Notes under the pieces: model-generated
Databases searched by the model: none
What the model was told of the DNA's origin: nothing
Seen by the model: only the letters and a program-made list of their open reading frames with translations
Position numbers and translations under genes: made by a program
In this document: in pieces, positions 1-10,510 of the stretch
Layout: every line of letters starts with the position of its first letter
How positions within the stretch are numbered: position 1 is the stretch's first letter
Virus record (IMG/VR): IMGVR_UViG_3300038379_000133
Coordinates: 800-64,799 of that record
Length of the DNA stretch: 64,000 nucleotides
Source of the DNA: a virus
Taxonomy: Duplodnaviria > Caudoviricetes
Direction: 5' to 3' (one strand)

Positions 1-330
1 AATCAGCGCTCGCAGGATCGGCACTAGAAACACCAGCACCCAAGCGTCGGCTTCTCCGCGCGATGCGTCCGCGCCGAGATGACAGACCTCCTCGCGCATG
101 GCCGATGTGATCTCGTTCAGCCGCTTGTCGCACGATATCTCTGCGATAGTCGCGAGGATGTCGACTGCTTCCGGTATTTCGCATGGATCGACCAGCTCGC
201 GTCGCGATGCTAGTTCCGACGGCACGGTTGCGCCGTGCGCTACGAATACGATCTCTTCTAGACCCGGTCCGCAAAGAGCGACGCAGATCAGTGCATCGAG
301 GTTTACCGGAGAACGCACGATATACTTCAT
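1..330 (-). CDS. Hypothetical protein, runs off the left edge (MKYIVRSPVNLDALICVALCGPG...)
   Basis: Not in ORF track; hand translation is open from ATG 330 to base 1; GGAGG RBS; ATGA overlap with the helicase stop. Confidence 0.7.
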   Translation of the reverse strand, partial: MKYIVRSPVNLDALICVALCGPGLEEIVFVAHGATVPSELASRRELVDPCEIPEAVDILATIAEISCDKRLNEITSAMREEVCHLGADASRGEADAWVLVFLVPILRALI

Positions 331-1928
331 ATCGGACCTCCTACTTGGGCAGCCGCATCGACGGAGCCATCAATGATTGCTGTCTTGCTCGCTAGCACCT
401 CAGCGATGCGTCGATCGAGCGCGTGGTCTGCGATGAGGCGCGTGATGATGACGCCGCGGTCTTGTCCGAGGCGACAGATCCGATCCTCTGCTTGTGCGTT
501 GAGCACAGGCGTCCAGTCCTGGTCGACGAACACTGCGCGATGTGCGCGCGTCAAGGTGATCGCGACGCCACCGGCCTGGATGGTAGCCGCAACGCCGCGC
601 AGTTCGCCGCGTTGAAAGCGAGCCTCGATCTCGGTGCGTGCTGTCGCCGGCGTGTCGCCTGTGATCGCAGCCCAGCCATCCCTAGTCCCGAGATGATCGA
701 TCGGCGCTCGATGCGCGGAGAACACCACGATCGGCTCGTCGGCCTCTTCGATGTCCGCGACGATCTCGACGAGCGCCGGGAGCTTCGCCGTCGCGAGCGA
801 AGCGCGCACCTCACTCATGCGCGAGAATGCGACCGTACGAGCGCGCGTCATCGCTGCTTCGTCTGCTGCGTTTGCGATGTCTACGCCCATCGCTGCTAAC
901 TCCGCGACGAGGGCGTCGCAGTCCTTGCGTGTCGCGTAATCGATCTCGACATCGATGTCGTCCCATGTTTTCGGCGGGAGCTCCGGCAAGACATCCTTGC
1001 GCAAGCGCCTCAGCATGACGCGCGAGAGCGCCTGTGCCGCCTCCGGTCTTGGGAGACCCCACACATAGCCGCCCCATTTGGCCTTGCGGCCTGAAAACGC
1101 GCGCACGAATGCAGGCCACGAGCCGAACGCCTCGGCGTCTAGCCCGGCGGCTGCGAGCACGTTCCACAAGTCGACTGGTCGAGACGTCAGTGGTGTCGCC
1201 GTGATCAAGATGACCTTGCCTGCCGCTGCGCGCGCTGCGCGCGTCACGGCGCGCAAGCGCTTGGTGCGCTGCGCCTTCGACGACTTCACAGCGTGTGCTT
1301 CATCGACAATGACGACGCAGCCGGCCGGCGCCAGCCCAGCCTCTTTTGGCAAGATGTCGTAGTTCGTGATGATCATCTCGCCAAGCACAGGCCAGCGAAA
1401 GGATCCGCGACCTGCGAGCACCGCGACCGCGAGATCCGGTCGCCATTTCGCCGCCTCGCGGCGCCACACGCCCTTGGCGACGGCTGGGCAGACGACCAAG
1501 ATGGGCGCGCTGATTGGAGCTGCTACAAGCGCCTGGATCGTCTTGCCGGTTCCCATCTCGTCGGCGAGGAGCGCTGCCGAGCGCGAGGCGAGCCAGGATG
1601 CTCCGGCGCGCTGGAACGGATACAGACGCTCGCTGAGCGCTGTGAGCGCGTTGTCGACCGCTATGACTCCCTCTTCTGCGGAGGTTACAGCCGCGAGCGC
1701 CGACACAAGCGCTGCGCTCGCTACGACGCCGAATCCGCGCGATTCTAGCTCGCGTCGCAAGCGCTCTGCTGCCTCGATGGGCGCGCGGTTGACTCGCGCG
1801 CTACTGTCCCATCGCGCTCCGGCCGCTCGACACGCCTCGCGATATGCCCCGAACGCATCGCCTGCTAGGTACGCGTCGGGAGACGCTGCTACGTCCAGCC
1901 CGAGCGCGTCCATGCGTATCGTGTGCAT
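327..1928 (-). CDS. SNF2-family helicase/ATPase, possible N-terminal HARP-like segment
   Basis: LLADEMGTGKT (motif I), VDEAH (II), ITATP (III), QAEDRICRLGQ (VI). Start moved from 1976 to ATG 1928 because 1929-1976 contains a promoter. Confidence 0.92.
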   Translation of the reverse strand: MHTIRMDALGLDVAASPDAYLAGDAFGAYREACRAAGARWDSSARVNRAPIEAAERLRRELESRGFGVVASAALVSALAAVTSAEEGVIAVDNALTALSERLYPFQRAGASWLASRSAALLADEMGTGKTIQALVAAPISAPILVVCPAVAKGVWRREAAKWRPDLAVAVLAGRGSFRWPVLGEMIITNYDILPKEAGLAPAGCVVIVDEAHAVKSSKAQRTKRLRAVTRAARAAAGKVILITATPLTSRPVDLWNVLAAAGLDAEAFGSWPAFVRAFSGRKAKWGGYVWGLPRPEAAQALSRVMLRRLRKDVLPELPPKTWDDIDVEIDYATRKDCDALVAELAAMGVDIANAADEAAMTRARTVAFSRMSEVRASLATAKLPALVEIVADIEEADEPIVVFSAHRAPIDHLGTRDGWAAITGDTPATARTEIEARFQRGELRGVAATIQAGGVAITLTRAHRAVFVDQDWTPVLNAQAEDRICRLGQDRGVIITRLIADHALDRRIAEVLASKTAIIDGSVDAAAQVGGPI

Positions 1929-1935
1929 GGCGCTC

Positions 1936-1976
1936 GTTGTACTATGTGCACGGTGTGGTGTCAACACTTTTGTCAA
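1936..1976 (-). promoter_or_regulatory. Sigma70-like promoter, TTGACA-N17-TACAAC, with a second TTGACA 12 bp upstream
   Basis: Minus-strand TTGACA at 1964-1959 and 1976-1971; TACAAC at 1941-1936; ATG 1928 lies 7 nt downstream with no SD. Confidence 0.6.
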
Positions 1977-2061
1977 CTCCTCTCAGGTCCGGGTGCTGTC
2001 CGAAGTAGGACACCAGCGGCGAAACTAGGAACAATGGCGCGCGCGGGCTTGTCGGCATGTT

Positions 2062-2421
2062 TCAGCGGCCAGGCCGACGCCGACGCGGCTTGGCCTCGTT
2101 GCGCCAAGGTTCCATCCCAGGAAGATGCGCCTGCTCGCCGCCCGCGTCCTCCACGGGCGCAGCCTGGAGGGTCACGTCCTGGCCGGGGTAGTCTACCCGT
2201 TTGCCGGCGAACGCCTCCGCCACGGTGATGAGCTGGATGCGTGGGTAGCCGCGGCCCCATGTGCGCGAGTGCCACACGCCCGCCTTCTTCGCCTCAAGGC
2301 GCATCTCGGCGGTTGGCTCGTTCATGGAGAACAGGACGCCGATGGGTGCGTCTTCGCGCTCGATCGTCCCGCGAAGTTCTCGCACCAAGAGCGTGTTCAC
2401 GTTAGGTTGGCGATCTAGCAT
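2062..2421 (-). pseudogene. C-terminal fragment of an Mrr-like restriction endonuclease domain (type fused to DNA methylases)
   Basis: VRELRGTIEREDAPIGVLFSMNEPTAEMRLEAKKAG...YPRIQLITVAEAFAGK matches that domain's C-terminal half; the catalytic N-terminal half and MTase are absent. Confidence 0.7.
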
Positions 2422-2679
2422 AGGCGCCCTCGTAGGCTCAACGTTGTCGGCGGGCTTCTCGACATCGTTGCGCGAGCCCTCCGTCGAAGCACTCGCGGCT
2501 GCCACCCGTCGGCAAACTGGCGAGCTAGTTGTTTTCTGTTGACACTGTACATCGATGACAACCGGATCGACGATGCGATCAAGGATCAGTTCAACCGCTT
2601 CTTGACTTCGGGCAGAGTCGCTACCGTGATCGCCGCGGACATCTTCGCAGCGGAAAACGGACGGCGCCTCCGCTGGGAG

Positions 2680-2749
2680 TCTGGTGTCGCAGGGCGGGGT
2701 GCAGACCTCTTGCATCTGGGAGCCGCCCGGAGTGCGGAATGCGTCCAGA
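2680..2749 (+). ncRNA. Long irregular hairpin of unknown class directly 5' of the tRNA-like element
   Basis: Nested pairings TCTGG/CCAGA, TCGCA/TGCGG, GGGCGG/CCGCCC, GGTGCAG/TTGCATC closing loop ACCTC. Confidence 0.3.
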
Positions 2750-2755
2750 AACAAC

Positions 2756-2833
2756 GCCCCCGCCGGCGGAACCTGGGCCGTCCAGGACCTACTAAACCAC
2801 GGGACTTCGGTTCGACTCCGAACAGGGGCGCTA
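2756..2833 (+). tRNA. Degenerate tRNA-like element (pseudo-tRNA)
   Basis: Acceptor GCCCCCG/CAGGGGC (6 of 7 pairs), D-stem GGCG/CGTC with GG in loop, variable loop GGGAC, perfect T-arm TTCGG-TTCGACT-CCGAA; anticodon stem does not pair (loop CT-ACT-AA); ends G-CTA not CCA. Confidence 0.45.
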
Positions 2834-2864
2834 ACGCGACTCGGCGATGAAGCCTTGCCACGCA

Positions 2865-4075
2865 CTAACCAGGCAGCAAGGTTACCATGTTCATCGCCGA
2901 GGTCAATTCCGTCGTTGACATGTCGACCACAAGATCGAACCAGTCCCGGGCGTTGACTAGCTTCCGGTTGTGTCTGTCGCGATCGGCCTGAGAGCATGTG
3001 CAGCGCTCGGTGCTAGCGTAGCCGCACGGACACGGATTCGCCGTCGCGACCACCTGGAAAGATGCCGGATACGTGATGACTTCACGATCGCAAGCGATGC
3101 GCGCGCAGCGCTCTTTCTGTGCTTGCTGGATCGATTTGAGCGCCGTTCGTCGAAACTCGGGCAATTCGTCGAGGAAGAGCACGCCGTTGTGCGCGAGGGA
3201 AACCTCGCCGGGGCGGACGAGCCGGCCACCGCCGACCAGAGCGGCGTCCGAAGCCGTATGGTGCGGTGCGCGAAACGGCCGCTCGCGGATGAGCCCACCG
3301 GCGCGCGTGAGCCCTGCGACCGAATGGATGCGCGTCGTTTCGATCGCTTCGTCGAGGGAGAGCGGTGGCAGAAGCGACGGCAGGCGCCGCGCGAGCATCG
3401 TCTTGCCCGAACCCGGCGGCCCGAACAAGAGCAGGTTGTGGCGGCCTGCTGCCGCGATTGCAAGCGCGTGCTTGGCTCGCTCTTGGCCTTTAATATCTAG
3501 GACATCTAGGGGGGCCGGGGCGTCGGTCACGAGCGCGCCTCGGGGCGTGGGCGCTGGCAATTCACGCTCGCCGCGCAGGCACGCTACTACCTCGGCGAGG
3601 GAATCCGCGATGCGCACGTCGTCGCCAAACAGTGACACCTCATCGCTGTTCCAGGAGGGTAGCACCGCTCCCATGCCGTGCGCTCTTGCCAGTTCAGCGA
3701 TCGGCATGGCTCCCCGAATTGGACGAAGCGCGCCGGAAGGCGCCAGCTCGCCGGCGTAGATCCCTCCTTTCGTTGCGCCTCGTGGGATGACCCCAGCGGC
3801 TTCGAGCAACCGCGAGCGCGAGCGGCAGATCGTGCCCCGTGCCCTCCTTGGGGAGATCCGGCGGGCGCGAGAGTCGCCGTCGCGCGCCGCGTCCCAAGCA
3901 CGTCGTACCCTGCGTTGTCGAGCGCGGATTTGACGCGCTCGCAGCTCTCGCGCGCCGCGTTTCCCGCGAGCCCGACGATGTGGAAATACGGGAGCCCTGG
4001 AGCGAGGTCGACCTCGACACGCACGAGCACCGCCTCGACGCCGCGCAGAGCGGCGCTAGCACAATGACTGATCAT
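2865..4075 (-). pseudogene. comM: ComM/YifB (Mg-chelatase-related AAA+) homolog, frameshifted and C-terminally truncated
   Basis: GVEAVLVRVEVDLAPGLPYFHIVGL, DLPKEG..DLPLALA, GPPGSGKT, RPFRAPHHTAS, GEVSLAHNGVLFLDELPEF, NPCPCG spread over three frames; two apparent +1 insertions near 3860 and 3810; stop soon after DWFDLVVDM. Confidence 0.88.
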
Positions 4076-4452
4076 GACTGCCTCCCTTTGCTCGTGATCA
4101 CGACAGGGCCATCCTCAAATTCGAGCGCGAGGCGCGCAACGCGCTTGAGTCCACGGAATGCGTACCATCGCCCGCGCGCATGGACTTCGCCGCCGTCGTG
4201 CGGACCGCGCACCGTGTCCATGTCGCACCAGATCGGATGAATCCCGAGTCGGCACAGCCGATCGAGCACCGACAGCGGTGCGACGACCACGATGTCATCT
4301 GCCTTGCTCGCAGCGTATCGCTCCGCGATGTGCTGCGCCGAATCGAACGGCCTCGGGTCGCGCAGGATCTCGCACGGCTCGCCGGCGGCTGCTTCGAGCG
4401 CTCGCACCTGCGACGCGAGCGGCTCGTGTTGCGATGCCCAGTAGATTGTCAT
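4072..4452 (-). CDS. Small alpha/beta protein, possible Csx15/Csx16/Csx20-like
   Basis: 126 aa ORF with RBS and ATGA overlaps at both ends; N-terminal YWASQHEP and DDIVVVAPLSVLDRLCRLG. Family assignment is tentative. Confidence 0.75.
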   Translation of the reverse strand: MTIYWASQHEPLASQVRALEAAAGEPCEILRDPRPFDSAQHIAERYAASKADDIVVVAPLSVLDRLCRLGIHPIWCDMDTVRGPHDGGEVHARGRWYAFRGLKRVARLALEFEDGPVVITSKGRQS

Positions 4453-5203
4453 GCGTCCCTCTCTGTGTTTGGCTGTTCGGCCGTCGCGTAACCCAACACC
4501 GCCGCGCGCAGGGCGCGGTCACCCGCCTCAGCGGCCGCAGCGAGCTGATCGATGGCCGCGCCGAGCACGCCACGATACGACTCGATCTTCGCTCGCAATT
4601 CGTGCATGCGAGCAAGGCGCCGCTCGACGACAAACTCCGGCGTGTCGGCTCCGATCGTCGAGACGGACTGATGCCAGTCCGAGATCAGCGCGCGAAGATG
4701 CGTGATGACCGCCTCGCCGATCGCCTGATCTGTGTCCGCATCGCCGGCAGCGATGCGGTAGGTCGCTAGCGAGCCGCCGATGCGTGCGAGTAGCTCGCGC
4801 AGCCGCTCGACGAGCTCCGCATGAGCCACCGGCACGAAGTATGCCCCACCGGCTTCGCGCACCGACACGAGGTCCGCGCCAGCGCTCTCGACGAGACGTT
4901 GCACGAGTCGCGTCACGTCCGCCGAGGTTCGCGCTGCGAGGTGCGCATCTACCAGCTCGCGGCACCGCTGTTCGAGGTGATGCGGAAGCGCACCAGAGTC
5001 TCGGAGTCGCGTCGGTATTGCGTGATGACGCGTCCTTTCTCCATGTCGTGCAGCGCTCGGCGCAGCGCGTGTCCGTGCGCCATTTCCCGCGCGAGCGCGG
5101 GATCCCACTGGCACGCTGCGAGCGCATCTCGCAGGATAGTCACAGACACAGATGACGATCGCCATGTCACGATCCATCCACGACCAAGATCATTAGTTTC
5201 CAT
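4449..5203 (-). pseudogene. DUF6744-like protein broken by an internal deletion/frameshift
   Basis: N-half (GWIVTW...RVITQ...VRFRIT) in frame 5203-4949; C-half (RTSADVTRLVQRL...GGAYFVP...) in frame 5177-4449; junction near 4975-4985; family middle segment appears missing. Confidence 0.65.
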
Positions 5204-5395
5204 TCATCTACCTCCCTGTTTGGGTTGGTTGATCGTTCTCACACAGAACACCAGCACCCTGTCAGCCGGCGATAATCTCTTTCGCGCGACGATCTCCTTC
5301 GCCTCGCGTGTGGGGCTCCGGTGCGCCGCATCGCCATTATGTTCGCGAGCCCTCGGCGGAATGCGTGTGCGCTTTCGTCTTCTGTGACGCGTCAC
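5204..5395 (-). CDS. Possible small hypothetical protein
   Basis: Open frame fills the gap between the vWA and DUF6744-like genes; start codon unclear (GTG overlaps the AGGAGG). Confidence 0.3.
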   Translation of the reverse strand: MTRHRRRKRTRIPPRAREHNGDAAHRSPTREAKEIVARKRLSPADRVLVFCVRTINQPKQGGR

Positions 5396-5414
5396 CTCCT
5401 TTGTGGCGCAGGTG

Positions 5415-6773
5415 TTAGATGCGCAGAACCTCGGCAACCGCTTCCGTCTCGGCCGTGATGCGCGGGATCACCCACACCCTGTCCGAGACTTCGCCGATGC
5501 TGCCTGGCTCGCTTGGGCCTACCACGATCGACAGCGTCCGGGCCTGTTCCTCTCGTGCCCACGTCCGGTAGGCATCGAGCGCCTCGTCCGGTGCCTCCAC
5601 GTTCGCGTCCGTGACGACGATCACATCCGTCGCCCCTCGCTGCATGCCGCGCTCGGCGAACGACGGCCACAGCCGCGGGAGGTGCTCGAGCACATCGAGC
5701 GTCGTGCCGCCCGCGAACATGTGCTCGGCCCAAATCACGAGCTCGTCCGCCGGATCCTGCTCCGTCGGCGCGAGTACGGCGTGATGGATCTCGGACCCTG
5801 CGCCGAAGCCGACGAGCGCGCACCAGCGGCGTTCCTGTCGAGCTAGCGACGCGAGCGCGAGCGCGAGGCCCTTCGCGACGACGATCTTCTGATCGTCGTG
5901 CATCGAGCCAGACTCGTCGACGACGACGACGATCGGACCTTTTGCCGCCTGCTCGACGCGCCGCTGCCGATACGACAGGCAACGCCGCATCGCGAGACGG
6001 TAGAGCGCGAGCGTCTCGATCTCCGGTACGACGCCGGCTACCGCCGCAACCTCGGTCGGCAGTAGCCGAGCGATGTCGCCGGATAGCTCGACGCCGACGA
6101 TCTCGCCGCGCTCGGCGATCGTTTTCGCAGCTTGCGCTGCTTGCACCATCTTCGCGAGACGTCCTGCCATCGCGAAGATCCGACGCAGCGTGTTGTCGCG
6201 CTCGGCGCGCTGCATGTACGAGCGCAATGCAGCCATGTCGACGACCGCACCATCGCCGAGGCCGAGCCCGGCCATCGTCGCACGCGCCTCGGCGACTTGC
6301 TCGCTCGCTGAGGCGACCGCATCGCGCGCTGCGCGCATGCGCGCGACTTGCTGCGCGATGCTTTCGCCGCCCTCGCCGCCCTCGCCGTCCGGCTGATCTG
6401 GCAGCGTCTCCGCGTACGCTGCCCAGCGGTCTACGATCGCTCGCGACGCGAGCGCAGACATGACCTCATCGAGCGCGGTTTCGCGTGCGAGCGCTCGAAA
6501 CTCCGGCGTCGACATCATGTCGGTCCAGAACTTCGCCCGCTCACGATCCGCGGGCCGCTCAGCGACGACAGGAGCTGGCTCGTAGAGCGCCGTGTGCGCG
6601 TCGCATACGACTTCATCCGGCGGCGCCTCGAGGCCCGCGTCGAGCCATGACTCGGCGACGAGCCGAGCCTGGCGCCGTCCCCATCGATCTACCTCGAGCA
6701 CGGTCTTCGACGCCGGTCGCGCCGGCGACGTCGCGATCTCGTTGAGCCCGAGAGCTGTCGTGTCGGCGCTCAC
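5415..6773 (-). CDS. vWA (MIDAS) domain protein, ViaA/CoxE-like partner of MoxR ATPase
   Basis: PIVVVVDESGSM (DxSxS), GGT, VIVVTD; preceding GVELSGDIARLLPTE segment; ATGA-coupled to the AAA+ gene. Confidence 0.9.
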   Translation of the reverse strand: MSADTTALGLNEIATSPARPASKTVLEVDRWGRRQARLVAESWLDAGLEAPPDEVVCDAHTALYEPAPVVAERPADRERAKFWTDMMSTPEFRALARETALDEVMSALASRAIVDRWAAYAETLPDQPDGEGGEGGESIAQQVARMRAARDAVASASEQVAEARATMAGLGLGDGAVVDMAALRSYMQRAERDNTLRRIFAMAGRLAKMVQAAQAAKTIAERGEIVGVELSGDIARLLPTEVAAVAGVVPEIETLALYRLAMRRCLSYRQRRVEQAAKGPIVVVVDESGSMHDDQKIVVAKGLALALASLARQERRWCALVGFGAGSEIHHAVLAPTEQDPADELVIWAEHMFAGGTTLDVLEHLPRLWPSFAERGMQRGATDVIVVTDANVEAPDEALDAYRTWAREEQARTLSIVVGPSEPGSIGEVSDRVWVIPRITAETEAVAEVLRI

Positions 6774-7891
6774 GACGCGAGCTCCGCAGCCTTGCTCGGG
6801 TCGATCCCGAGCAAAGCCGCCTGGATCGTGATGCGCTGCGCGCGCACATGCGCGAGCGCTTTCGCCGCTCGACCGTTGCCGCCTTGCGCTGCGAGCGCCG
6901 CCAGCTCGCGCTCGCTCGCTTGTAGTTTCTTGGTTGCGGCAATCTTCGTCGCAACGTCCGCGCCGTTCGCGGCGCTCGTCGCCGCGTCATCCGCGGCGAG
7001 CAAGATTGCCGCGACCTGCGCTCCCGTCGGGTTCGCGACGCGCGTGACGATCTCGTCGGTCGCCGCGATGGCCTCCGGCGTCGGCCGATCCCACAAGACG
7101 TCGCGCAGCGCCTCGAGGTGCGCCGGCGTGACCGACGCCGCGCCATCGATGACCGCCGCGGCCCGAGCGATCTTCACGGCCGCGCGGAGGCGCCGATCGG
7201 ACGGACGCACACACGCAGCCGCGAGCTGCTCGAGGATGTCGTCGAGCGCGACGTACGCCGCCTCGTCGACGACGATCGCCTCGGCTGCGCGCTGCGCGGC
7301 CTCGAGGTCCGCGAGCGTTGCGACCGGCGTGACCGCCGGCAGCGCCTCGCGCAAGAGCCGCGCACGGCCGGTCCGCGAAAGCGGCCGCACTTCGCGCCGA
7401 ATCAGCCAGCGATCCAAAAACGCCGCCTGCTCCGGCTCGATCGGCCATGTGTTGGCCGCGCCGATCGCCGCGACGAGCGGCACGCGGACCTGGCGTGTGC
7501 CGATGAGCGCCTGACGCTCCGGGCCGAGCACATGAAGGAGCGTGTCGGCGATCGCCGGCGACGCTCGCCCGACTTCATCGAGAAACGCGATATGCGCATC
7601 CGCGACGGACCCGGCCGTCACGTGCTCATACCGATCCTCGCGGAGCGCCGCGAGGCTGATCGGACCCCACACCGCCTCGGGCGGCGTGGTCGGCGCGAGC
7701 AGGCGCTCGCAGTAGCGAGCGCCATCGATGGTAGCCGCCACTGCGCGGCACGCCATCGACTTTGCGGTGCCGGGTGGCCCCACGAGCAGGACGTGTTCTC
7801 GCGCGACGAGCGCGAGCACGATCGCTCGCACCTCGTCGTCGCGCTCGACGAGCGCTGCCGACGCGGCGCTCGTGATATTCTCGATCGACAT
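6770..7891 (-). CDS. MoxR/RavA-type AAA+ ATPase
   Basis: LLVGPPGTAKS (Walker A), FLDEV (Walker B), AANTWP, AFLDRW, SDRR; AAGGAG RBS. Confidence 0.92.
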   Translation of the reverse strand: MSIENITSAASAALVERDDEVRAIVLALVAREHVLLVGPPGTAKSMACRAVAATIDGARYCERLLAPTTPPEAVWGPISLAALREDRYEHVTAGSVADAHIAFLDEVGRASPAIADTLLHVLGPERQALIGTRQVRVPLVAAIGAANTWPIEPEQAAFLDRWLIRREVRPLSRTGRARLLREALPAVTPVATLADLEAAQRAAEAIVVDEAAYVALDDILEQLAAACVRPSDRRLRAAVKIARAAAVIDGAASVTPAHLEALRDVLWDRPTPEAIAATDEIVTRVANPTGAQVAAILLAADDAATSAANGADVATKIAATKKLQASERELAALAAQGGNGRAAKALAHVRAQRITIQAALLGIDPSKAAELAS

Positions 7892-7942
7892 TTTGGTGTC
7901 TCCTTTCCATTGAGACGTGTGGCATTGAGAATGCGTGACAGT

Positions 7943-8125
7943 GCCGTACGAAAACGAGCGGACGAGGTTGCAGGAGCGTAGCGGTCGGCGTAGCGTAGCG
8001 GAGCCGAAGCTTTGCTAGCGTAGCGACCCCAACCTCGGGAGCGAGTTTTTCGCTCCACGCCCGGATGGACCCTGTGGTCTATTTCGGGCGGCGACTTCGC
8101 CGCCCCAACCGGGCATAGCTACGGC
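7943..8125 (-). ncRNA. Putative retron-like msr-msd ncRNA, located 3' of the RT
   Basis: Terminal inverted repeat GCCGTA/TACGGC with an unpaired G (8119) right after the 5' arm; three-way junction (8059-8114) with hairpins 8086-8105 and 8068-8079; hairpin 8038-8056; long interrupted stem 7963-8037. Confidence 0.72.
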
Positions 8126-8138
8126 GAGTGAGATGTGG

Positions 8139-8936
8139 TCAGGTCACCTCCCGCGTCACGATCATGTGGGCGAGCACGTGCTCGCCAGTTTCCGCTGCGC
8201 GAGTCGCCGCGGCCAAAATGTCCGGGCCGCGCAACGACGCCCATGCGCGCATGCCCCGCGCACGATCGCGAGCACGATCGCTACCGCGCGTTTGCGCGGC
8301 GTGCTCAGCGGCGCGCAGCGCGCGCCGCGCCTCGCGCGTCGGGTAGATCGCGTCGTCGCCGACGGCGATCCCGACCACGATCCGCCGGCCGCGCCGGCCG
8401 TCCTGGATCGTTGTCTTGCGCTCATGGACTTCGTGCCCATGACCACGCGCCGCGCGCTCGATCACGTCGCGCATTTCGTGGATCACCGCGATGTCGTTCG
8501 TCGAGACAACGAGATCGTCCGCGTACCGGGTGTACACGCCGCGCCCGGCGAGCGCCGACACGATCTCGGCGTCGAGCCCCGACAGCGCGATGTTGCAGAT
8601 CGCCGGCGACGTCGGCAGCCCTTGGCGCGCTACGCCGCCGACGAAGCAGCGCGAGTCGACGTCGGGTACGAGCGCGCGGACCTGCGCTTCTGCGATCCGG
8701 TCGAAGCAATCGACCAGATCACACGATAGCGTCCAGCGGTAACCCACATGCGCTCGTGCGCATGTCACTGGCGATCTGCCAGGTGTGAACCCGTGCTGGA
8801 CGCCGTGGCGGTCGAGCGCCATCGCCGCCGCCGCGAGCCGCGGTACGAGCACGCGCAGCGCGCTGCGCTCATCGCGCGATGGCACGACCACTACGCGGTG
8901 GCGGCCGCGGCCTTTCTTGATGCGTAGTTCTCGCAT
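8139..8936 (-). CDS. Compact retron-type reverse transcriptase (about 265 aa)
   Basis: IKKGRG.HR (RT1), HGF..GRS...CARAH (NAxxH-like region X), DLVDCF, QGLPTSP, YTRYADD, RRIVVGIAV (VTG-like region Y); no maturase or endonuclease domain. Alternative start 8948. Confidence 0.92.
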   Translation of the reverse strand: MRELRIKKGRGRHRVVVVPSRDERSALRVLVPRLAAAAMALDRHGVQHGFTPGRSPVTCARAHVGYRWTLSCDLVDCFDRIAEAQVRALVPDVDSRCFVGGVARQGLPTSPAICNIALSGLDAEIVSALAGRGVYTRYADDLVVSTNDIAVIHEMRDVIERAARGHGHEVHERKTTIQDGRRGRRIVVGIAVGDDAIYPTREARRALRAAEHAAQTRGSDRARDRARGMRAWASLRGPDILAAATRAAETGEHVLAHMIVTREVT

Positions 8937-8938
8937 TA

Positions 8939-9190
8939 TCACACCCATGCGTGCGCCAGGAGCGCACCAAATAGCACATCGTGTCGCTCATCGAGGTCGC
9001 GCCGCGCCGCGGCTTCCGCCCGACGCGAGATGCCGCGTGCGTGCCGGACTGCTAGGCACCCGCCTTCGGCCGCCCACTCGGCGGTCTCTAGCGCGGCGTA
9101 GGCTGCGCTGCGCCGCGCCGCTGAGGCGCGCGCGCGGTGCAGCTTCCGCCGCGCGCGGCGCGACAGCTCGATGTGCGTGATGCTGGTCAT
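8939..9190 (-). CDS. Hypothetical Arg/Ala-rich protein directly upstream of the RT
   Basis: 83 aa; ATGA overlap with the upstream gene; stop 2 nt before RT ATG 8936. Confidence 0.6.
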   Translation of the reverse strand: MTSITHIELSRRARRKLHRARASAARRSAAYAALETAEWAAEGGCLAVRHARGISRRAEAAARRDLDERHDVLFGALLAHAWV

Positions 9191-9399
9191 CCCTCAGCGC
9201 CTTCCTCGCACTCGGCGCATTCGGTCGAGTCGGATACCGCCGAGAGTACGTGCCCGCGGCGGCGGCAAAACGCCTCGGGCCCGTAACACGCGGGGCAAAC
9301 GAGTTGGTCGGCGGCGACAAGCGGCCAGCCCATCGCCTCCTCCTCCGCTGTGCATGTGGTTGCACAGACGCTACAGCGGAGGGGCGGTTTCGATTCCAT
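9187..9399 (-). CDS. Small Cys-rich (Zn-finger-like) protein
   Basis: MESKPPLRCSVC...CPAC...C..H...CAEC; GAGGAG RBS. Confidence 0.65.
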   Translation of the reverse strand: MESKPPLRCSVCATTCTAEEEAMGWPLVAADQLVCPACYGPEAFCRRRGHVLSAVSDSTECAECEEGAEG

Positions 9400-9403
9400 C
9401 GTT

Positions 9404-9655
9404 CTACTCCTCGTCCGGCGCGTACCAGGTGTAACACACCACCGACGTCCCGCCGCGGCGGCGGGACACGCGGCGGTACTCGCGCCCCCCCTCGCACGCG
9501 CTGCGCGGCACGACGTACCACGCGTGTTGCGCCTCGCCCTCGCGGTTGTCGATGAACCCTTCCGCCGCGTAGCGGCGCGCCGCGGCGATCGCCTTCGCGA
9601 AGGATTTGTACACCTCACCGAATCCACGACGACCAGACTGATTGACATAATACAT
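9404..9655 (-). CDS. Hypothetical protein
   Basis: 83 aa with AAGGAG RBS directly after the recombinase stop. Confidence 0.7.
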   Translation of the reverse strand: MYYVNQSGRRGFGEVYKSFAKAIAAARRYAAEGFIDNREGEAQHAWYVVPRSACEGGREYRRVSRRRGGTSVVCYTWYAPDEE

Positions 9656-9670
9656 AGTATTTCTCCTTGG

Positions 9671-10510
9671 TTAGTCGAGCGTATCCAGCGCCGATCGGAG
9701 GCGCTCGACGGGCCGCCGATCGTACCGCGCAGTCGTCGCCGGGCGTGAGTGCCCGAGCATTTTCTGCGCGGTCGCCAAATCGCTCGCAGTGATCACGTCA
9801 CCGGCGAGCGTCCTGCGGAAATCGTGCGGCGAGCACGCCGCCACGCCGGCGCGCTCGCACAGCACCGCGAGCCACGCGTGCAGACCCTGGCGGGTCATGC
9901 GGCCGCGCGGCGACCCATCGGCGCGTACCGACGGGAACAGCGGCCCCGCCTCGAGCCCGCGCACGGCGACCCACGACGCGATCGCCGCGGCCGCGCGCGC
10001 CGCGAGCGGAACCTCGCGCGAGACGCGGCCCTTCGCGACCAGGCGCACGAGCTTGCGCTCGAGATCGACGTCGCCGACGTCGAGCGCGCAAATTTCGCTT
10101 GCGCGAAGCCCGGTCGCGCGCGCAAAAGCGAGCAGCGCGACGTCGCGCGCGGCGATCGCCGCGTTCGGGTGCTGCGCCGCGGCGGCCGCGAGCGCGGCGC
10201 GTTCAGCGGCTGTGATCTCGCGGCCGGCCGGCGCTTCGCGTCGACCCGACACGCGGGCCTCCGCGAGCGCGCGGATGGTCGCCGGCGCGGCAATCCCTTC
10301 GAGGCGCTCGAGCTCGCCGCGCACGAGCGCGAGCGTGAGCCGCGCCGTCGACGGCGCGTAGCGCTCGACGAGCGCGGCGACGAGCGCGCGCACGTCGCTC
10401 GCCGTCATCGCCGCGATCGACTCGACCGGGCGGTCGAGAATCCGCGCCGCGCGCTCGAGCGCCTCACGCGTCGTGAGCGACGTGCGCGTGCTATTTGATC
10501 CGCTCAGCAT
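9671..10510 (-). CDS. Tyrosine recombinase (XerC/integrase family)
   Basis: Catalytic set R (GLRASE), K (KGR), H-x-x-R (PHDFRR), H (LGHS), Y (TTARYD); 279 aa, no arm-binding domain. Confidence 0.93.
   Translation of the reverse strand: MLSGSNSTRTSLTTREALERAARILDRPVESIAAMTASDVRALVAALVERYAPSTARLTLALVRGELERLEGIAAPATIRALAEARVSGRREAPAGREITAAERAALAAAAAQHPNAAIAARDVALLAFARATGLRASEICALDVGDVDLERKLVRLVAKGRVSREVPLAARAAAAIASWVAVRGLEAGPLFPSVRADGSPRGRMTRQGLHAWLAVLCERAGVAACSPHDFRRTLAGDVITASDLATAQKMLGHSRPATTARYDRRPVERLRSALDTLD

Follow-up and report, generated by a model that had tools for sequence, protein, structure and literature searches.

The 64,000-nucleotide stretch of DNA analysed here (the window) is positions 800 to 64,799 of IMG/VR virus record IMGVR_UViG_3300038379_000133 and covers nearly all of a 64.8-kb viral contig (Duplodnaviria; Caudoviricetes) from a freshwater metagenome. 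Its leftmost 10.5 kb form a single leftward operon on the minus strand, within which a small reverse transcriptase (RT) gene and a structured RNA on its 3' side accompany genes for a MoxR/RavA-like AAA+ ATPase, a ViaA-like von Willebrand factor A (vWA) adaptor and a broken homolog of the DUF6744 family. This combination points to an undescribed retron-like RT system. The RT and its RNA probably constitute a phage-borne cassette that has become a fixed accessory of a MoxR-vWA-DUF6744 machine, and an RT-made DNA product would act together with that machine; the cassette and the machine are likely to form one functional unit. The genes concerned are as follows.

8948/8936-8139, minus strand: RT, from the open reading frame (ORF) call and a match to Pfam RVT_1
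8138-7892, minus strand: spacer of 247 nt from the RT to the AAA+ gene
7891-6770, minus strand: MoxR/RavA-like AAA+ ATPase, 373 aa (PF20030, AAA_5, AAA_lid_8)
6773-5415, minus strand: ViaA-like vWA adaptor, 452 aa, with a metal-ion-dependent adhesion site (MIDAS) and an AlphaFold2 (AF2) model
5203-4449, minus strand: broken DUF6744 homolog, from tblastn with intact homologs

The preliminary description of this DNA had presented the RT, the structured RNA, the MoxR AAA+ gene and the vWA gene as one co-directional unit, and ORF calls, family matches and fold all confirm this arrangement. It had also noted the lack of an evident terminator, which agrees with a scan of the minus strand between the RT and the AAA+ gene in which no terminator-like or promoter-like site was found. 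The 3' end of the RNA, which had been placed about 50 nt from the ribosome-binding site (RBS) of the AAA+ gene, lies close to that estimate, since the last long stem ends at 7963, ~58 nt before the RBS AGGAG at 7904-7900. The reported overlap of the AAA+ and vWA genes is likewise present, although its sequence is not ATGA; the vWA gene starts with GTG and shares a 4-nt GTGA with the MoxR stop codon.

Inheritance of the RT, its RNA and MoxR-vWA-DUF6744 as one block

The neighbourhoods of the closest RT homologs, whose analysis had been suggested as a check, were examined on the contigs of relatives with 46-58% identity, and MoxR/vWA linkage, with DUF6744 alongside, recurs in every readable locus. 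The unrelated neighbours that would have counted against the proposal were seen at none of them. The MoxR, vWA, DUF6744 and RT genes are co-directional in all nine close loci with enough contig (L241, the P0004 contig, L243 (L243/L244), L245, L246, L247, L248, L306 and the window), and DUF6744 adjoins the RT in three truncated contigs (the P0011 contig, L249 and L250). The same four genes are found in L015 (IMG/VR), which carries a more distant RT. No counter-example, in which an RT of this clade would stand apart from the block, was found among the close RT homologs with readable context. The proteins encoded in the linked loci measure 371-395 aa for bpMoxR, 467-494 aa for vWA and 273-315 aa for DUF6744, and tblastn orthology across loci amounts to 42-56% for MoxR, 30-43% for vWA and 38-44% for DUF6744; MoxR identity ranges over 37-58% when every RT-linked locus is included. 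When all ORFs of nine loci (5-21 kb each) were compared against each other, the only families common to at least four loci were those four. The linkage is thus not a conservation of the whole region, because the remaining genes of each locus differ.

The usual order is MoxR-vWA-DUF6744-RT-RNA, and the unit of RT and RNA occupies three positions, namely after DUF6744, before MoxR (as in the window) and before DUF6744 (L250). Linkage is kept in spite of insertions, of three genes between DUF6744 and the RT in L243 and of three small genes between MoxR and vWA in L245. As a rule DUF6744 lies immediately upstream of the RT and often overlaps it, the two genes overlapping or abutting in L248, L246, L306, L015 and the P0004 and P0011 contigs; the functional unit should therefore include DUF6744. 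Pairwise identities of the RTs correlate with those of MoxR (0.82), vWA (0.76) and DUF6744 (0.88), and these values are comparable to the correlations among the three partners themselves (0.81-0.87), the pairs not being independent. Chance adjacency in a mosaic operon, which the preliminary description had kept as a real alternative, is contradicted by the retention of the four genes together, by their unrelated flanks and by the co-variation of their identities. Phage genomes that are unrelated in other respects have inherited the four genes and the RNA as a single block; the RT is invariably accompanied by its RNA, and in this clade it is never away from the block.

The strongest argument for functional coupling comes from beyond this clade. 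Relatives of the RT number in the hundreds in metagenomes and share its small size (260-280 aa), and in the RT tree the MoxR-linked RTs form one clade (support 92) that is sister to 51 other minimal RTs. Clustering of the neighbours of these sister RTs revealed further AAA+ partners. In six or seven loci (among them L001, L006, L011, L020, L165 and L176) the RT lies downstream of an AAA_5 MoxR-like ATPase and a DUF2201_N/DUF2201 metallopeptidase-vWA protein, and in nine others (L003, L005, L008-L010, L013, L016, L022 and L168) it lies downstream of a 505-aa classical AAA (PF00004) ATPase. With MoxR-vWA-DUF6744 as the third, the partners of the minimal RTs seen here are of three types. In addition, a canonical retron RT of 329 aa, which scores 233 bits against the PADLOC RT_XIII profile, lies 600 nt behind another MoxR-vWA pair (399 aa and 527 aa, respectively) on an IMG/VR contig (L292:8160-12537), and this is an independent association of a retron with MoxR-vWA. 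Descent alone hardly accounts for RTs having been paired again and again with AAA+ proteins that are not orthologous, and functional coupling is favoured for this reason. We tentatively extend this to a broader proposal, which we hold with less than even confidence, that minimal RTs of 260-280 aa with a 3' template RNA represent a distinct branch with AAA+ machines as obligate partners, in which the RT-made DNA-RNA particle would serve as the sensor or client for an ATP-driven chaperone to load, unload or activate, a mode of action that phages themselves would employ.

The RT and the RNA element on its 3' side

From the start shared by its family (MRELRI, 8936) the RT comprises 265 aa, and an in-frame upstream ATG at 8948 would extend it to 269 aa. 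The YADD, QGLPTSP and DLxDCFD motifs are intact, and Pfam RVT_1 is matched with an E value of 1e-20. The PADLOC retron RT profiles match at ~1e-32 with no type prominent, RT_X, outgroup and III-A all scoring ~108 bits. The family alignment (A1) contains 35 invariant columns, and the retron-type NAxxH and VTG motifs are present in it, with the consensus SPVTNAxxH and RRIITGVAV and with A64, H67 and G193 invariant. The window RT carries the variants TCARAH (NAxxH-like) and VVG (VTG-like), and IVG occurs in other members. As judged from these profile and motif matches, the family appears to be retron-like and to lie outside the curated types. A search of phage sequences in GenBank gave no nucleotide match, and the RT matches were distant (at most 31.9% identity).

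In every locus a conserved structured RNA is encoded 3' of the RT, which a coding gene overlaps on its upstream side, and the non-coding stretch after the RT is 200-800 nt long in related loci. In the window, the spacer 8138-7892 folds better than its shuffles (z -3.4), and the architecture listed here recurs in L248, L249, L246 and L247. Because MAFFT could not align the full RNAs, their helices were compiled manually and with a script.

8125-7943, minus strand: structured RNA core 3' of the RT, from the fold
8125-8120 / 7948-7943, minus strand: closing stem GCCGTA/TACGGC of the window locus, 6 bp
8121-8116, minus strand: TAGCTA motif
8114-8109 / 8064-8059, minus strand: stem P1
8105-8086, minus strand: hairpin H1, GGGCGGCG-AAGT-CGCCGCCC, candidate RT recognition element
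8056-8038, minus strand: hairpin 2
8037-8030 / 7970-7963, minus strand: stem P3
8029-7971, minus strand: P3-enclosed segment of 59 nt with six CGCT (GCTACGC) repeats, candidate template for complementary DNA

Hairpin H1 is situated 22-75 nt past the RT stop codon in eight clade loci and the window, and ~300 nt past it, behind a small ORF, in two more loci; it is also present in three sister-clade contigs. Its conserved core reads G-Y-G / N(2-3)T / C-G-C-C with a 3-4-nt loop that has T last, and its outer stem is variable (CCCG/CGGG, CCAG/CTGG, GTTG/CAAC, GGCG/CGCC, GACG/CGTC and GTCG/CGAC). Across 18 copies (15 distinct, 13 loci), 123 of 123 pairs are canonical, against a shuffle mean of 99 and with none of 2000 shuffles reaching 123, a figure that is inflated because some of the copies were found by a search that itself required pairing. 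Compensatory changes occur at pairs 3, 5, 6 and 7. The RT-sense strand is the folded strand, because the U.G wobble pairs of H1 are possible solely there. The strict H1 motif occurs 2.05 times per kb within 900 nt 3' of the RT and 0.16-0.28 times per kb elsewhere, and is thus ~10 times denser beside the RT. H1-like hairpins are found two or three times per locus in L241, L243, L246 and L249, and a further H1 copy lies in L306.

In five GC-rich loci (the window, L248, L249, L246 and L247), a stem GGKTY.../...RAACC surrounds 37-59 nt that are enriched in CGCT. The P3-enclosed segment of the window contains six copies against 0.45 expected, and the five segments hold 6, 2, 4, 4 and 2 copies against ~0.3-0.6 expected; three of the five are also poor in A. 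L245 and L306 have instead a long, nearly perfect msd-like hairpin of ~100-120 nt (L245:8504-8860; L306:9905-10210), and the region 3' of the RT in L245 closes with an intrinsic terminator consisting of a GC-rich stem and a T-run. No Rfam family was matched in scans of the window or in a permissive scan of 7700-9300. A diversity-generating retroelement (DGR) was considered and rejected, because the RNA region has no second genomic copy that could make up a pair of template repeat and variable repeat (TR/VR); when 7851-8200 was searched by blastn in the complete 64.8-kb genome, it matched only itself.

Two further features of this region were noted. An RAGCT(A) motif precedes H1 in most loci, as TAGCTA in the window (8116-8121), GAGCTAGC in L248 and L249, ATAGCTAC in L246, TAGCTACG in L250 and GTAGCTT in L306, and it could mark the 5' end of the RNA or a priming site. 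Directly past the RT-associated RNA, three loci carry an STIV_B116-like gene (PF08960; L246:4135-4533, L247:5788-6126 and L248:4513-4854).

The MoxR, vWA and DUF6744 proteins

The AAA+ protein matches bpMoxR PF20030 (E 2e-39), AAA_5 (5e-17) and AAA_lid_8 in Pfam, and its Walker A (GPPGTAKS, residues 38-45) and Walker B (AFLDE, 102-106) motifs are both intact. Its best NCBIfam match is RavA, with 120 bits against a cut-off of 681; positions 12-286 of the 498 in the RavA profile align to residues 4-268, and the C-terminal LARA region is unmatched. The vWA protein consists of an N-terminal helical domain (~30-216) and a C-terminal vWA domain (~274-452), and it matches Pfam VWA_2 weakly. Its MIDAS is complete (D286-E-S-G-S290); DESGSM, GGT and TD do not vary among 7 sequences, nor does the DES-S core among 36. 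The AF2 model of the protein has a pLDDT of 89.8, residues 274-452 match vWA/I-domains at Z 16-17, and the model matches the NorD and Rea1-MIDAS structures among others. The best NCBIfam match is ViaA, with 57 bits against a cut-off of 500, and neither protein reaches the NCBIfam equivalog cut-offs that would indicate RavA/ViaA orthology proper. A Pfam scan of the window vWA protein found no peptidase-domain family. A likeness to Ro60/TROVE was dropped, the Foldseek TM score being ~0.25 and the match not recurring in the VIA-align re-ranking.

Tblastn of intact DUF6744 homologs (273-315 aa) located the window copy in two frames (E 5e-44). Family residues 1-77 are encoded in an 84-aa ORF at 5203-4949, and the remainder runs in another frame to 4449; ~32 family codons are gone at a junction near 4975, which represents a frame-shifting internal deletion. 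The break is not an artefact of the assembler, because window positions 4027-9000 are identical in a separately assembled Logan contig, although the reads are probably the same ones. The break is found together with an unusual feature of this phage, the relocated RT-RNA unit. The disruption of DUF6744 and the rearrangement of the RT-RNA unit suggest that the local copy may be partly decayed; the RT, MoxR and vWA genes are nevertheless intact. The AF2 model of DUF6744 (pLDDT 92) shows alpha/beta domains and a three-helix bundle, with no propeller. Foldseek found no match to it in the PDB at E <= 0.001, and the matches from VIA-align were generic bundles that covered the C-terminal helical bundle only. 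In the ESM Atlas and BFVD, the model matched uncharacterised phage proteins only, including one of Haloarcula virus HVTV-1. Since the fold (model ma61771413061) turns up both in uncharacterised proteins from uncultured tailed phages and in a protein of Haloarcula vallismortis tailed virus 1 (L7TK87, E 3e-13), viruses of bacteria as well as of archaea carry members of the family.

Interpretation, rival explanations and genomic surroundings

For the joint working of the RT-RNA cassette and the MoxR-vWA-DUF6744 machine we infer the following mechanism. The unit would be expressed from the early leftward operon. The RT would bind hairpin H1 and copy the P3-enclosed CGCT-repeat segment into a short single-stranded DNA, analogous to the msDNA of retrons. 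The resulting particle of RT, RNA and DNA would then work with MoxR-vWA-DUF6744, which it would gate in the role of a sensor or regulator, or by which it would be assembled or remodelled as a substrate. The most probable setting would be a conflict between phage and host or between phages (exclusion, an abortive response or counter-defence).

Several observations weigh against this interpretation. The caution in the preliminary description that AAA+/vWA/DUF6744 blocks can occur without an RT proved justified, as most such phage blocks are RT-less. Alignments of vWA and DUF6744 in IMG/VR placed the triad in ~40 distinct phage contigs, in two gene orders, and a hidden Markov model of the RT family detected an RT in only 2 of these; searches through the whole records of five RT-less relatives found no RT. 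The RT-less relatives include a complete genome of 67.7 kb with terminal repeats, whose vWA protein is the most similar to that of the window (43% in the tree alignment, 51% for the best tblastn match to the family). Because most triad phages are RT-less, the triad has a function of its own; the RT is dispensable for the block, which works without it in most phages. The RT-RNA unit appears from these comparisons to be an accessory that was acquired in one sublineage and sometimes lost. The vWA tree groups the eight RT-linked proteins, without exception, with six RT-less ones in a clade of 14, and since a single vWA subclade is concerned, the pattern could also stem from an ancient insertion that happened once and was co-inherited thereafter. 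Further points on this side are that the best NCBIfam match of the RT, retron_St85_RT, reaches 101 bits against a cut-off of 235, that the non-coding RNA (ncRNA) lies 3' of the phage RT and not 5', a layout that is not retron-like, that a search of sequencing runs recovered the locus in no RNA run and in one freshwater DNA metagenome only, which is available as contigs and is probably the source, and that the pairing count of H1 is inflated as stated above. The region itself may be decaying, given the broken DUF6744 and a split ComM-like gene. Finally, where a role has been proposed in print for MoxR-vWA pairs of phages, it is in the assembly of virions and not in conflict (PMC7824862; PMC7159879 citing Scheele 2011).

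If the RT-RNA unit and the block were functionally independent neighbours, co-inherited after a single old insertion in one phage lineage because they share a segment of the early operon, then the commonness of the block without an RT and the confinement of the RT-linked blocks to one vWA subclade with RT-less members inside would follow, and correlated divergence would be expected from shared descent alone. Against such independence stand the conservation of the four genes but not of the genes that flank them, the three shifts of the RT-RNA unit in position but never out of the block, and the overlap of DUF6744 and RT stop and start codons in several loci, as well as the independent occurrence of different AAA+/vWA partners beside a canonical retron RT and beside further clades of minimal RTs; we regard independence as unlikely. 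It is distinctly improbable that the block acts as an assembly or maturation chaperone for which the RT-RNA serves as a nucleic-acid cofactor or primer, in replication priming or packaging, and not as a conflict device. The assembly proposals just cited, the standing of the block as a widespread, conserved phage module and its DNA-metabolism neighbours (SNF2, ComM-like and integrase genes in the window, RecT/YqaJ and UvrD elsewhere) are in keeping with a chaperone of the life cycle. However, the locus belongs to the early operon and not to a structural module, and the RT is not essential to the basic role of the block because it is absent from most block-bearing phages, including close relatives.

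In a last alternative, the 3' element would regulate the downstream genes in cis, at the RNA or DNA level, for instance as an attenuator, a processing site or a protein-binding hairpin of the nut/boxB kind, and the RT would find its template elsewhere. The multiple H1-like hairpins in four loci, the intrinsic terminator at the end of the L245 element and the position of the window element directly upstream of the MoxR RBS would suit such a role, but the RNA follows the RT wherever the RT moves, while the gene downstream of it varies (MoxR, DUF6744, the B116-like gene or small ORFs); moreover, L245 and L306 have long msd-like hairpins, and the wobble pairs show the RT-sense strand as the folded strand. 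We consider this alternative very improbable, and a cassette that supplies an RT-made DNA product to the MoxR-vWA-DUF6744 machine remains our preferred reading.

Retrons and defence-associated RTs figure prominently in research on the conflict between phages and bacteria, and genome-editing tools have been derived from them. All those that have been characterised are, to our knowledge, host-encoded with toxins as effectors, and we know of no retron, defence-associated RT or DGR in which an ATP-driven chaperone acts on an RT-made DNA-RNA particle. If the coupling is functional, it would represent a new logic, in which a nucleic-acid product is handled by a MoxR-vWA chaperone and which resides on phage genomes, and it would offer the first experimental handle on the enigmatic MoxR-vWA-DUF6744 module of phages. 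The compact 265-aa RT with its defined candidate recognition hairpin might serve for DNA production in vivo, and the comparison has yielded a well-defined collection of RNA elements and orthologous loci.

The phage system resembles retrons in that its RT is best matched by retron profiles and has NAxxH-like and VTG-like motifs, in the structured ncRNA beside the RT, and in the combination of an RT-ncRNA cassette with exchangeable, co-diverging partner genes. MoxR, vWA and DUF6744 conform to the associated, co-evolving genes of retrons by their linkage and by their correlations with the RT (0.76-0.88), whereas the msr-msd directly upstream of the RT within a1/a2 repeats, which is characteristic of retrons, is absent. 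The phage RT is also much smaller (260-280 aa), lacks an N-terminal extension and scores below the curated cut-offs. Furthermore, the partner set MoxR-vWA-DUF6744 is widespread without an RT, and the system is phage-encoded in an early operon. The earlier statement that no retron type with a MoxR-vWA partner was known holds for the 13 types (I-XIII) of Mestre et al. 2020, none of which has MoxR-vWA-DUF6744, and neither 'MoxR' nor 'AAA' occurs in that text (PMC7736814). A literature search found no description of a module of an RT with MoxR-vWA-DUF6744.

On the chaperone side, the AAA+ gene with an adjacent vWA gene to which it is translationally coupled, the intact Walker A and B motifs and the complete MIDAS are shared with RavA-ViaA, CbbQ-CbbO, NorQ-NorD and Rea1/Midasin. 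RavA-ViaA differs in that the phage proteins score far below its equivalog cut-offs and in that the phage block adds DUF6744 and, in this clade, the RT and RNA. RTs of the DGR type have been tied to MoxR-vWA ternary conflict systems (Kaur, Burroughs, Iyer and Aravind 2020, PMC7159879), and among the literature found, these are the only published links of an RT to MoxR-vWA. The phage block is akin to these systems in that its best Pfam model, bpMoxR PF20030, was defined for MoxR-vWA-beta-propeller systems. In theirs, however, a DGR RT diversifies an FGS effector through a TR/VR pair, whereas the phage RT is retron-like (motif B QGLPTSP) with a single genomic copy of the RNA. By Pfam, no beta-propeller, VMAP or FtsH component was found in the operon, the third conserved gene being DUF6744. 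Phage MoxR-vWA pairs have also been proposed as assembly chaperones, namely ATV p618/p892 and the MoxR and metallopeptidase-vWA proteins of jumbo phages (Iyer et al. 2021, PMC7824862; PMC7159879 citing Scheele 2011). The likeness here consists in a phage-encoded MoxR with a vWA cochaperone, and a DUF2201 peptidase-vWA version stands beside the sister-clade RTs. The window differs in the lack of a peptidase-family match in its vWA protein and in its early-region genes, and the published descriptions (PMC7824862, PMC7159879) mention no RT or ncRNA with those pairs.

The remainder of the leftward operon surrounds this block on both sides, and its G+C content (0.64-0.70 in window 1-10000) exceeds that of the rest of the phage genome (~0.60). 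The neighbouring genes are as follows.

10510-9671, minus strand: tyrosine integrase, followed by two small ORFs and then by the RT
Beyond the DUF6744 homolog, minus strand, in the same operon: a 126-aa ORF, a split ComM-like gene, a 311-aa ORF and an SNF2 helicase

The ComM/Mg-chelatase-like gene (window 2865-4075) is divided into two overlapping frames, a ChlI N-domain ORF at 4075-3587 and a Mg_chelatase ORF at 3809-2865. One Logan contig of the source run is one base short at 3860, and the split may thus reflect a polymorphism or an error.

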